DNA from: a virus
UHGV virus genome: UHGV-1364246
Length of the DNA stretch: 39,893 nucleotides
Strand: one strand, 5' to 3'
The position numbers and the translations under genes are program-made. A model generated the notes under the pieces. That model searched no databases and was not told the origin of the DNA. It saw nothing but the letters and a program-made list of their open reading frames with translations. Shown one piece after another: positions 2,031-23,200 of this stretch. The first letter of the stretch is position 1, and each line of letters opens with the position of its first letter.

Positions 2031-2060
2031 TGAGTCGTTCTCCTTTAAGTCGTTAATAGG

Positions 2061-2157
2061 TAGAGCCACTCAAAGTGGGACTTACTGTAGGATGACTTAG
2101 GCTAAATACCCACGGTCATTGTGTGCGCTACAGTAAGTCCCACTTTGAGTGGCTCTA
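2061..2157. repeat. 30-bp perfect inverted repeat (arms 2061-2090 and 2128-2157, 37-nt loop) in the gene 9 leader
   Basis: tagagccactcaaagtgggacttactgtag is the exact reverse complement of ctacagtaagtcccactttgagtggctcta. Confidence 0.9.
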
Positions 2158-2159
2158 GT

Positions 2160-2182
2160 TGTTCCTATAGTGATAGTTTAGG
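2160..2182 (-). promoter_or_regulatory. Phage RNAP promoter (phi9-like), overlapping the portal stop codon
   Basis: Minus-sense CTAAACTATCACTATAGGAACA; the TAA of the portal gene is the first three bases of the TAAAC block. Confidence 0.75.
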
Positions 2183-3746
2183 CTTGAGCCATGTCCTCAC
2201 CAGCTACTTGTCCAACAGTAGCGCCCATGTTAGCACCAGCAGCAGACGCACCGTTGACCACAGCTCCTTGAGCGGATTGTTCTGCCATACGTTGCAACTT
2301 CTCGTCCTGAGTCAGCAGCAAACCGGCAGTGTCAATACCTAAGGCATTCAGCAGTCGCAGCTTCAGGGTAGGCAAGTTAATGTCTGGGTCCTGTTGCAGA
2401 GGCTGTAGCCCGGTCATCATGTTTACTGCCTGAGTCAGCTTCTCTAAGTCTTGACCACGACCTAACGCTTCCAGACCAGTGGATACCGTAGGCTCTACTG
2501 CTTCTTTCGGAAGGTCAGGAATCATGCCAGCAGACTGAAGCTGGTTCATCAGTACACGGACGATAGGTAACTGAAGCTCTTGTGACTGCACTGAGTACAC
2601 GCCACCTAAGGTCGCCTCCAGTTCGCCAGCAACATAACGAATCTCTTCAGCAGTGACTCGCTCGGCATTACGCTGAACAGCACTATTAAGAAGGAAGGCC
2701 CAACCTAAACGTTGCTCGATAGCGTCAGCCACCGACTTAGCAATCGTAAAGTCCTGACCTTTCGTCAGTTGCAGGAAGTTGATGTCCTCAACTCGACCAG
2801 CCACGAACTCACCTGTAGCCGCCTTGTTCAGACGTCTAGGTTGCGTGATACCGTTCGGGTTAACGAGGCCCACCACCTTGGAGGCTACCTTAGCCATTTT
2901 GGTGATAGCTTCTGTAATCGTCTCCAGCGAGTTCAGGTCTCCCAGATACTCCTCGCAGTAAGAACGACCGTAGTCTTCACCATCCAGTCGAACCATTCGT
3001 ACCGGGATGTATGGACATGCAGTCAGCGGGTAGGAACCATCGGTCCCTGCCACCTCAATACCTTCCACTTCCTCGTAGCGAAGATACTCGTCGTCCTGAC
3101 GGTAGATGTGCGTATACACTTCAAGCTCGGTGTCAGGCTCATAGTCGTCTGCGTTGAGTTGAGACTTCACGTCTTCCGGTAGAGCACTAAACGCTACCTT
3201 GTCGAGAGTCACAATCTGCAAGATGTTACCGAACGCATCACGTTGAACAACGTAAGACACTAAGCGGTACATTCGCATTGGACTGTAGGTTCCTTGTTCT
3301 GGAGGAGGGATGTAGAGCAGACAGTTACCTGAGACGATAAGCTGCTTCAAAGCCTCAAACAATGGGACACGGAAACTGTTAGTCTCCATGTAGGCCATCA
3401 ACACACGCTCGACCATAGCCAGCCCTTCGTCAACACGAGCAGCCGCCTCTGAGTCCTGACTCAAGGTCTTGGCCTCATATTCGGAGACTGTCAGTCGCAT
3501 CCACGGTGACTGAGGGAATAACGCCAACATCAGCTTTGCAGCCAAGTTGTTCAAGCAGCGAGCACCCACAGCTTGCCACGGCGTCACGTATTCCGTAGAC
3601 GAGTTGTCGGACTCCTTAGGAAACAGTGACGGGATAGTGACAGCCGCACAGTTCTGAGCGCGCGTCTCATATGGCTGTCTACCGTTCTTCAGTCTGTCAT
3701 AAACTGCCTTCGCGCCTTCAGCAGCAAATCCTTCACGTTCAGCCAT
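2178..3746 (-). CDS. Portal (head-to-tail connector) protein, gp8-like
   Basis: 522 aa; MAEREGFAAEGAKAVYDRLKNGRQPYETRAQNCA... closely matches recalled T7 gp8. Confidence 0.9.
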   Translation of the reverse strand: MAEREGFAAEGAKAVYDRLKNGRQPYETRAQNCAAVTIPSLFPKESDNSSTEYVTPWQAVGARCLNNLAAKLMLALFPQSPWMRLTVSEYEAKTLSQDSEAAARVDEGLAMVERVLMAYMETNSFRVPLFEALKQLIVSGNCLLYIPPPEQGTYSPMRMYRLVSYVVQRDAFGNILQIVTLDKVAFSALPEDVKSQLNADDYEPDTELEVYTHIYRQDDEYLRYEEVEGIEVAGTDGSYPLTACPYIPVRMVRLDGEDYGRSYCEEYLGDLNSLETITEAITKMAKVASKVVGLVNPNGITQPRRLNKAATGEFVAGRVEDINFLQLTKGQDFTIAKSVADAIEQRLGWAFLLNSAVQRNAERVTAEEIRYVAGELEATLGGVYSVQSQELQLPIVRVLMNQLQSAGMIPDLPKEAVEPTVSTGLEALGRGQDLEKLTQAVNMMTGLQPLQQDPDINLPTLKLRLLNALGIDTAGLLLTQDEKLQRMAEQSAQGAVVNGASAAGANMGATVGQVAGEDMAQA

Positions 3747-4149
3747 CTACGTGCCTCCATGTTTTACCTGTTAATACGTCAGACAGCGTTCTCCTGGCTA
3801 CTCCCGGATATGCAGAGGTAAGCTCTGTCGCTGTTAGCCCTGACTTTCGTATGGACTTAACATCTTCGGTTGTTAGCTTGGAGTTGTAATGGCTGTCACT
3901 ATGTGGAGCGTTCTTTCTACCTTTGGAAACACAGTCTACCATGTTATCGCTATAAGTACCAACGCTCAGGTGTTCGGGATTGACGCATAGTCTATTGTCG
4001 CAGGAGTGCATCACCACTAGACCTTCTGGTATGGGACCTTTGTGTTTTAGGTAGGACACTACATGCGCTCCACGTAGCTTACCTGCATACCACTTCAGTC
4101 CATATCCAGCATTATTTACGCAGCCCTTATGCAGTATGCAGTCTGTCAT
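3739..4149 (-). CDS. HNH endonuclease (T7 gene 7.7 position)
   Basis: 136 aa; HKGPIPEGLVVMHSCDNRLCVNPEHL HNH motif. Confidence 0.7.
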   Translation of the reverse strand: MTDCILHKGCVNNAGYGLKWYAGKLRGAHVVSYLKHKGPIPEGLVVMHSCDNRLCVNPEHLSVGTYSDNMVDCVSKGRKNAPHSDSHYNSKLTTEDVKSIRKSGLTATELTSAYPGVARRTLSDVLTGKTWRHVDG

Positions 4150-5307: not shown

Positions 5308-5368
5308 CTTGAATCTCCTCTTTAAGTTAAGACTAAAGTCTATCTTATAGTCATATCTTAGGTCCTAA

Positions 5369-5391
5369 AGTCCCTATAGTGATAGTTTAGT
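5369..5391 (-). promoter_or_regulatory. Phage RNAP promoter (phi6.5-like, GGGACT start)
   Basis: Minus-sense CTAAACTATCACTATAGGGACT. Confidence 0.8.
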
Positions 5392-5517
5392 GTTTCACCT
5401 ATGGATGACTATTGGATTGATAGGATATGACTATCGGTTAGACTCAGTGTTTAGGACGGTTGTTCGACCCGAACCACTTGTACATGCAGTAAAGGGCCAG
5501 AAGTCCGGCCCAGTATA

Positions 5518-17040: not shown

Positions 17041-17089
17041 AGGGTTAATCATGAAGGCCACGACTCTGAGTCATGACCTTGAGTCTAAT
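17041..17089 (-). ncRNA. RNase III processing element (R1.1-like) between the promoter and gene 1.1
   Basis: Second copy of the ATCATGAAGGCCAC...ATGACCTTGAGTCTA element. Confidence 0.6.
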
Positions 17090-17108
17090 CCTATAGTGAT
17101 AGTTTAGG
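17086..17108 (-). promoter_or_regulatory. Phage RNAP promoter (phi1.1-like)
   Basis: Minus-sense CTAAACTATCACTATAGGATTAGA. Confidence 0.75.
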
Positions 17109-22085: not shown

Positions 22086-22270
22086 CTTGTTTATCCTATA
22101 GTTAGTGACTATCAGTCAGGGCCTTCAGATGTAGACTCAAAGACCCTGTAGTTAGTCGCTATCGGCGCACATTAAGAGTTTATCCAGATTGTTAAAGAGC
22201 ATTCGCGTTGGCTGTCGTCGCCGTGCTATCCCGTTTCAGTGTTGGGACTCACTAATCTTGCCTGCCGTGT

Positions 22271-22299
22271 AAGTTACTACAGTCAAACCAGCTTGTCAA
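22271..22299 (-). promoter_or_regulatory. Sigma70-type early promoter (A-series-like): TTGACA, 17-nt spacer, TAACTT
   Basis: Minus-sense TTGACAagctggtttgactgtagTAACTT. Confidence 0.45.
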
Positions 22300-22425
22300 C
22301 CACTTTCTTAGCTCGCTTGCTGTAGTAACCTACCATCTTACTTAGTAGACCAGATATTCGCGCTGGTCACTCCGCATAGCCGATGTAGTTTATCAGTTCC
22401 GGCTCGCTGTACTGCTTGGTGAATC

Positions 22426-22719: not shown

Positions 22720-23045
22720 TGACTGTAGGTGTTGGTGTCTTATGGTTGAGACTGTAGGTTAGTGACTTATGGTCTGATACAGATAGAGACTCAAAGAAGA
22801 CCCATAGTCCCAACCTATCGTCCTGACCATCAGCCATAGCCTAGACCTATCGTAGACCTAACGTCTTGACCATTGGTCCAACCTTATGATAGACTGGGGT
22901 AGGGCCTTTGGTCTGGACTGAAAGAGGGCCTATGGGGAGACTTGAGGTTCTTGAACTGTGAGATGTGGTCTCAAACTTTTGGTCCAAAACTCATCGTCAT
23001 TACTGTAGGTCACAGCCACTGTAGGTCAAGGACCGTAGGTCAGGC
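22720..23045. repeat. Genome-end region: collapsed terminal repeat flanked by arrays of the short direct repeat (C)YGTAGGT; inferred physical left end at about 22963
   Basis: Five copies of ctgtaggt/ccgtaggt (22723, 22752, 23003, 23019, 23033), analogous to T7 ACCTAAAG arrays; minus-sense TCTCACAGT...CCCCATAGG at 22963 downward resembles the first bases of T7. Confidence 0.5.
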
Positions 23046-23200
23046 GACACTAGGATAGACCAATAAGTAGGATGACCCTAAGTGAGCTTCTCTTAAGATG
23101 TTACCTAAAGTCCTTGACTACAGTAGCTAAGGTCAGTAGAGTAGCGTCAGCTATGAACTGACCTTAGGTCTTACTTTCGTTGATTGTTACCATTACGGCG

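Follow-up and report, generated by a model that had tools for sequence, protein, structure and literature searches.

A perfect inverted repeat ahead of gene 9 in a Kayfunavirus genome is the longest allele of a sequence-hypervariable leader stem-loop

The mRNA of T7 gene 10 is stabilised by a 5'-terminal stem-loop (Mertens et al. 1996, as cited in PMC6146998), and the T7 RNase III sites (R0.3, R1.1, R6.5, and others) are intercistronic hairpins in polycistronic transcripts of the phage polymerase, the enzyme accommodating about 22 bp of double-stranded RNA (PMC6212723). Perfect stems can also be created, or existing ones repaired, in a single event of template switching, which by itself can yield compensatory-looking changes without selection (PMC8794818). 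The leader hairpin described here acts, by analogy, possibly like the T7 gene 10 and ompA-type 5' hairpins and possibly also like the T7 RNase III sites, and is a sequence relative of none of them. As a short intergenic unit of 97 bp with long terminal inverted repeats, it additionally bears a likeness to miniature inverted-repeat and REP-like elements.

The window, that is, the whole stretch of 39,893 nt that was analysed (UHGV-1364246), is a Kayfunavirus genome (K1F / EcoDS1 / SH3 group, T7 family) with its genes on the minus strand, and it shares 96.5% identity with Citrobacter phage SH3 across the 1.5 kb surrounding the site (~3.5% divergence). Ten matches to the promoter consensus were found in the window, all on the minus strand and phi9 among them. 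Using the T7 convention of -17 to +6, we infer a start of the phi9 transcript at G2165; the promoter also contains the stop codon of gene 8 (2180-2178). Counted from this start, the stem-loop covers +9 to +105 of the transcript (2157 to 2061), beginning 8 nt past position 2165, and the end of the stem is 15 nt from the gene 9 Shine-Dalgarno sequence. In read-through transcripts the hairpin is intercistronic, between genes 8 and 9. A first, sequence-only reading of this DNA had placed a perfect 30-bp repeat between phi9 and the start of the scaffold gene, and this placement proved right, since phi9, the stem, the ribosome-binding block, and the gene 9 ATG follow one another in that order on the minus strand (Table 1). 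The open reading frame list extends gene 9 to a GTG at 2069, and relatives annotate the ATG. Elsewhere in this region, an HNH endonuclease ORF of 136 aa (Pfam HNH_3; 3739-4149, minus) separates gene 7.3 from gene 8, whose start it overlaps. EcoDS1 lacks this ORF, gene 7.3 there coming directly before gene 8, and the ORF is likely a homing endonuclease insertion.

Table 1. Features of the phi9/gene 9 locus, in window coordinates
Feature	Position	Strand	Description
Gene 8, portal / head-tail connector	2178..3746	-	PF12236; hairpin also in gene 8 read-through transcripts
phi9 phage-RNA-polymerase promoter	2160..2182	-	CCTAAACTATCACTATAGGAACA; equals the 23-nt phi9 feature of EcoDS1 and a predicted promoter in CR44b
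RNA stem, 5' arm	2128..2157	-	Sense UAGAGCCACUCAAAGUGGGACUUACUGUAG; begins at +9 of the phi9 transcript; 1 position varies (13 genomes), covarying with its partner
Loop region, 37 nt	2091..2127	-	From the fold; most variable part of the cassette, 10/38 columns
Small apical hairpin in loop	2092-2119	-	AUGAC/GUCAU stem plus 5 more pairs (fold)
RNA stem, 3' arm	2061..2090	-	Sense CUACAGUAAGUCCCACUUUGAGUGGCUCUA; C-to-U in 3 relatives gives a G-U pair in sense RNA
Window-specific 3 nt	2082..2084	-	UAA in sense RNA, pairs with UUA 2136-2134; completes the perfect repeat
Conserved unstructured ribosome-binding block	2040..2060	-	CCUAUUAACGACUUAAAGGAG; Shine-Dalgarno AAGGAG 2045-2040; kept in leaders that are otherwise unrelated
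Gene 9, scaffolding / capsid assembly protein, 294 aa	1146..2030	-	ATG 2030-2028; Pfam PF05396 match

The two arms (2061-2090, TAGAGCCACTCAAAGTGGGACTTACTGTAG, and 2128-2157) are exact reverse complements over 30 nt (100%) with a spacer of 37 nt. RNA folding, which had been proposed as a check, was carried out against a background of dinucleotide shuffles, and the leader as sense RNA gave the best hairpin of the window (-68.2 kcal/mol compared with -31.4 +/- 3.4 for the shuffles, z = -10.9); the DNA fold of the repeat reached -38.3 kcal/mol (z = -10.6). In a window-wide inverted-repeat scan, this was the sole perfect long inverted repeat in 39.9 kb, the runner-up having 24-nt arms at 83%, and the arm found no second match within the window at up to 3 mismatches (100 shuffles likewise gave 0 matches). 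The impression that the repeat is unusually long and perfect was borne out, as it exceeds the window's other processing-type hairpins in both respects. Equally confirmed was the observation that no U-tract follows the stem. An intrinsic (class I) terminator was rejected on this ground, the stem being followed by CCUAUUAACGACUU. A scan for terminators and sigma-70 promoters around the site found none (0 terminators in 1800-2400), and a tRNA/tmRNA scan was also negative. When the cassette was scanned against Rfam 15 at E <= 10, no family reached its gathering threshold; the sub-threshold matches were to generic miRNA hairpins, the best being mir-290 with 31.5 bits against a threshold of 51.

Comparison with 23 Kayfunavirus gene 9 loci taken from IMG/VR revealed that the phi9 leader occurs in at least nine alleles, 25-100 nt long and unrelated in sequence, set between an invariant GGAAC(A/T).. 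start and an equally invariant (U)ACCUAUUAAC..AAAGGAG block. Each of nine alleles folds with a closing helix, in which the first 1-9 nt of the transcript pair with the bases just before ACCUAUUAAC, and the T7 phi9 leader forms a closing helix from its 5' end too (GGGAGACC/GGUCUUCC). When the conserved 5' end was held fixed and the remainder shuffled, the 3' end of the cassette was more complementary to the 5' end than in the shuffles for nine of the nine alleles (p = 0.0005-0.045); the Fisher combined p was 1.2e-11, and 2e-10 with the window left out. A second allele family showed its own compensatory pair in the closing stem. The shuffle z-scores for the fold were weak for several other alleles (-0.1 to -2.5), the EcoDS1-type leader scoring -0.1 as a whole leader and -1.6 over the cassette core. 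In most of the other alleles, the closing helix has about 6-10 bp and is accompanied by large internal loops, and one allele (L061) is a 10-bp hairpin.

Since the leader alleles are incongruent with the phylogeny of the flanks, we conclude that recombination has swapped cassettes in the interval from the conserved promoter to the ribosome-binding site. The closest relative by flanks, CLB_P1 (98.1% identical overall and 99.1% on the gene 9 side), bears an EcoDS1-type leader. A recombination hotspot had been suggested from the repeat itself; the reshuffling of leader alleles relative to the flank phylogeny agrees with this, but the conserved flanks would suffice for it without the repeat. On the basis of the shared closing helix and the exchange of cassettes, the window repeat is the longest ('SH3-type') allele of a structurally conserved, sequence-hypervariable leader stem-loop found in all Kayfunaviruses examined. 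That the hairpin is one allele of such a general element had been missed by the sequence-only reading. With flanks that are 95-99% identical, at least nine unrelated leaders, and one preserved helix, the locus constitutes a natural allelic series, which is useful for working out what hairpins in the 5' leader do for late phage messages and for the design of expression leaders of the T7 type.

A search for the arms elsewhere and in related phages, also proposed earlier, was performed with blastn ('distant'). The 97-nt cassette was found in 14 phage records only, all Kayfunavirus-like, and nowhere else in the window; in 13 of 13 records examined among the 14, it was located at the phi9/gene 9 locus. 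Conservation within this allele was assessed in 13 genomes representing 7 haplotypes with ~8% flank divergence. Among the 27 stem pairs shared by these genomes, no disruptive change was observed. One pair was fully compensatory (A-U in 5 genomes and G-C in 8), and another changed from G-C to G-U in 3 genomes, a wobble that works in the sense RNA only and not in the antisense. Variable columns were fewer in the arms (3/54) than in the loop (10/38; Fisher p = 0.0066). The small apical hairpin is not conserved, as HC12 and 6925 have lost its 5 inner pairs. The argument from covariation is weakened by the fact that template switching can mimic compensatory changes without selection.

The perfect repeat was present in the window only, a point that the sequence-only reading had missed: perfection is peculiar to one assembly, and all relatives carry a bulge. 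In 12 of 12 relatives, the 3' arm is without the UAA, so that the UUA of the 5' arm forms a 3-nt bulge between helices of 21 bp and 6 bp and the cassette measures 94 nt. The perfect form reads CTACAGTAAGTCCC and the bulged form CTACAGGTCCC, the insert at 2082-2084 being the exact complement of the relatives' bulged UUA. In the allele comparison, the fold went from -54.8 kcal/mol in SH3 (bulged) to -64.5 kcal/mol in the window. In the flank tree, bulged cassettes occurred in both deep clades, {SH3, RDN8.1} and {HC12, P7124, Aba_01KA}, with the window nested in the first, and by parsimony the insertion is therefore derived. Judged by the sequences compared, the perfect 30-bp state looks like a recent, derived, templated 3-nt insertion in the lineage of the window. 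The 3 nt would have been copied from the opposite arm by template switching or quasipalindrome correction, removing the ancestral bulge. This matches the described template-switch or quasipalindrome-correction events (Ripley model; Monttinen and Loytynoja 2022, PMC8794818) in that an imperfect stem becomes perfect in one step through an insert complementing the opposite arm; these events are a mutational mechanism, not a functional class, and here we infer one from a single lineage-specific 3-nt insertion whose ancestry is given by parsimony only. With an insert of 3 nt that exactly fills a bulge, the window offers a clean candidate for the footprint that template switching would leave on perfecting a phage stem. 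As a separate observation, the 8-mer CCTACAGT occurs 14 times in the window compared with 1.5 expected, 11 of these on the sense (minus) strand, with a cluster at 22722-23025 (minus) in the terminal-repeat / left-end region. Its reverse complement, ACTGTAGG, is similar to the promoter core ACTATAGG, and one copy (2091 to 2084) is owed solely to the window's TAA insertion.

On the precedent of the 5' stem-loop of the T7 gene 10 mRNA, we favour, with moderate confidence, the reading that the leader hairpin is a 5'-proximal stem-loop serving the stability or the insulation of the gene 9 message. The repeat would be transcribed as a long stem-loop opening the phi9 mRNA, from +9 to 15 nt before the gene 9 Shine-Dalgarno sequence, where it would shield the abundant late mRNA of gene 9 (and 10) from decay that depends on the 5' end and would hold upstream sequence away from the ribosome-binding block. 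Like the hairpins of the T7 gene 10 (phi10) and ompA 5' UTRs, it is a promoter-proximal leader hairpin upstream of an unstructured A/U-rich ribosome-binding block, and gene 9 is a highly expressed late structural gene of the T7 family. Its structure is also kept while its sequence diverges, as seen in the compensatory and wobble changes, in the nine alleles, and in the second allele family. The likeness extends to the T7 phi9 leader with its GGGAGACC/GGUCUUCC closure and to the window's own phi10 leader, which has the classical version of such a hairpin. The phi9 hairpin differs from the T7 gene 10 type in its size (30 bp plus an apical hairpin, 97 nt in all, against ~8 bp), in beginning at +9 and not at +1, in its unrelated sequence, and in occupying a locus with at least nine interchangeable alleles.

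The first 8 nt of the transcript (GGAACAAC) were predicted to be unpaired in the window and in the SH3 allele (mean unpaired probability of nt 1-4, 0.65); in most other alleles, taking the inferred start position, the minimum free energy structure pairs nt 1-2. Classical protective hairpins are said, after Emory and Belasco, to lie at most ~4 nt from the 5' end, and the protective reading is weakened by the greater distance of this stem. Predicted Shine-Dalgarno accessibility and 5'-end pairing probabilities did not discriminate among the alleles; as Shine-Dalgarno accessibility was equal between them, the insulation idea gains no direct computational support. Because of its helix length (21 + 6 bp in the relatives and 30 bp in the window), the allele could fill the ~22-bp binding site of RNase III and hence may also be cleaved. 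Of the functions proposed earlier, a translational or stability element and a double-stranded RNA processing site thus both stay viable, the stem being kept in 13 genomes and the closing helix in nine alleles. A cis-acting mRNA hairpin is an ordinary kind of element, and the biological surprise would be small. Hairpins were also noted in other leaders of the window: the phi10 leader (1097-1127, minus, start 1127) shows a T7-phi10-like 5'-terminal stem-loop, GGGAGACC..GGUUUCCC, followed by a second hairpin, and the promoter with its start at 17091 (17050-17091, minus) has a 12-bp hairpin at about +11 (AAGGUCAUGACU/AGUCGUGGCCUU) with two G-U pairs.

For the window allele, a protective hairpin and RNase III processing are compatible and not exclusive. 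The main rival is a dedicated RNase III site ('R9'), at which a cut by the host enzyme would part gene 8 from the gene 9-10 mRNA and so determine where the scaffold and capsid message begins and how stable it is, as the T7 R sites do; this we hold to be unlikely, though by no means negligible. The intercistronic position in read-through transcripts of the phage polymerase and the length of the helix, which at 30 bp in the window and 21 + 6 bp in the relatives is compatible with T7-type sites (at least ~20 bp) and with the ~22-bp footprint, speak for such a site, as do the asymmetric 3-nt bulge of the 12 relatives, which resembles the interrupted helices of T7 sites, and the presence in the window of further hairpins that are long and imperfect in the manner of T7 R sites, such as that spanning phi6.5. 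Against it, the window helix has no internal loop or bulge at the scissile position and runs uninterrupted over 30 bp, so that cleavage of both strands with loss of the hairpin is predicted, unlike the single nick that leaves a protective, stabilising hairpin at T7 sites. The enzyme is moreover sequence-selective in vivo and not merely length-dependent. Most of the other alleles, with their short closing helices, are below the length required by RNase III, and processing is therefore not a shared function of the locus.

No match by homology or position to a catalogued T7-group R site was obtained (blastn 'distant'), and phi9 is the sole entry between genes 8 and 9 in the RefSeq T7 record, with no feature annotated from there to gene 9. 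In the work of Dunn and Studier (1983), T7 reportedly has no RNase III site in this interval. The curated annotation of EcoDS1 likewise has phi9 only and no RNase III sites, a literature search on RNase III sites in K1F-like phages returned nothing relevant, and the hairpin is unmentioned in the paper describing SH3. If the perfect helix is real, cutting on both strands would be expected, which makes the window variant functionally interesting, and the bulged and perfect forms provide a natural matched pair for comparing, in vivo, the action of RNase III on interrupted helices with that on uninterrupted ones. Long imperfect hairpins were also predicted on the minus strand at 5330-5450 (z = -4.2), 23018-23125 (z = -4.6), and 22262-22340 (z = -6.6). 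The first spans a phi6.5-like promoter (start 5374), as T7 R6.5 does, and the other two are in or near the genome-end and early region; their modelled folds make all three candidates for RNase III sites of the classical type, which the records of relatives leave unannotated.

It is improbable that the repeat has no function of its own and is a neutral by-product of template switching, sitting in a spacer that tolerates it and hitchhiking when recombination exchanges the stretch from the conserved promoter to the ribosome-binding site. Such an origin would account for the hypervariability of a leader that is swapped among near-identical flanks, for the nearly unstructured EcoDS1-type leader, and, given that template switching produces perfect repeats and compensatory-looking changes without selection, for the features of the stem itself. 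It is at odds with the closing of a helix at the same boundaries in nine unrelated alleles, with the lower variation in the arms than in the loop, and with the absence of any disruptive arm substitution in 7 haplotypes at ~8% flank divergence. A bolder extension of the cassette exchange, to which we give only slight credence, is that the phi9 leader of Kayfunaviruses is a dedicated swap slot for structured-RNA cassettes, in which hairpins arise de novo and are perfected by template switching, recombined, and kept diverse by selection. If true, this diversity might help, for instance, in evading or titrating a host factor directed at the abundant late RNA (RNase III, an RNA-targeting defence, or a double-stranded RNA sensor), and the perfect 30-bp double-stranded RNA would be a functionally distinct, newly arisen allele.

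Independently of the other readings, there is a slim chance that the perfect state arose as an artefact of assembly or sequencing and that the phage truly carries the 94-nt bulged cassette. The perfect state rests on one metagenome assembly, the window being a circular permutation of ENA ERZ28577305 scaffold_428; 3.9 kb fetched from this scaffold was 100% identical to the window and wrapped its ends. Exact-protein look-ups of gp9 and gp8 returned only scaffold_428 and no second assembly. An assembly error, named at the outset as something that would refute the repeat, is kept among the readings because the perfect form is seen in this one assembly only. The perfect form was also found in 0 of the 14 cultured-phage records. 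The loop, however, has two more changes private to the window, A to C and G to U, which fit the ~3.5% natural divergence from SH3, and a templated 3-nt insertion is a known natural class of mutation. By reasoning alone, the two arms would not give rise to a closed bubble in a de Bruijn graph, and bubble-popping is therefore not expected to make them perfect. The 39,948 bp of scaffold_428 (COST17-1_SAMEA4545425) exceed the 39,893 of the window by a terminal overlap of 55 nt, of the kind that an assembler leaves at k = 55, and the window ends fall in the gene 10-11 region.

The sequence-only reading had further proposed a miniature palindromic insertion, and this was not upheld. An element acting at the DNA level, be it a mobile palindromic insertion of miniature size, a signal for recombination or cruciform formation, or a palindrome bound by a protein, is very improbable, even though the repeat is perfect over 30 bp, its DNA hairpin is stable, and the locus is a mosaic boundary. 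The cassette replaces a different 68-nt leader between identical flanks (compared with EcoDS1, CR44b, and CLB_P1) and shows no target duplication. No match was found among 5,426 complete E. coli genomes, and a 17-mer scan of IMG/VR returned SH3 and one chance match only. Metagenome contigs scanned with 17-mers and species genomes scanned with 19-mers, the latter being one representative bacterial or archaeal genome for each of 185,579 species, together gave 26 matches, all of them chance k-mers of 17-20 nt when compared by BLAST with the whole leader. Thus, in contrast to miniature inverted-repeat and REP-like elements, the cassette is single-copy, has no target-site duplication, is not found in hosts or at other loci, and sits in a slot of homologous replacement. 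A mobile palindromic element was excluded because of this single locus, the replacement without target duplication, and the absence of other copies. For the remaining DNA-level forms, the 37-bp spacer works against cruciform extrusion, and it is only as sense RNA that the stem tolerates the G-U wobble.

A 23-codon leader micro-ORF (MTVGIEPKSSYRSHLEWLYLLTT in the relatives), running from a start in the loop to a UAA stop just before the gene 9 Shine-Dalgarno sequence, deserves hardly any credence and was rejected: although it is intact in 12 relatives, shows differences at four third-codon positions in HC12 and 6925, and is annotated as a CDS in two records, it meets a stop at codon 6 in the window, its ATG has no upstream Shine-Dalgarno sequence and is buried in a helix, its substitutions (3 synonymous, 5 missense, 1 nonsense) are near neutral, and the phanotate score of the annotated CDS is -0.307. 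In the GenBank records of Providencia phage EPr2 and Acinetobacter phage vB_Aba_01KA (95-190 in each), the cassette carries a 31-codon 'hypothetical protein', which is most likely a spurious call. The vB_Aba_01KA record (1-722) also has the portal gene 8 annotated in two pieces, with the 'head-tail adaptor' ending at 405 and 480-722 labelled as a 'hypothetical protein', which suggests a frameshift or a sequencing error. This phage (39,611 bp) and Escherichia phage vB_Eco_1RS (39,612 bp) are nearly equal in size and match the query similarly.
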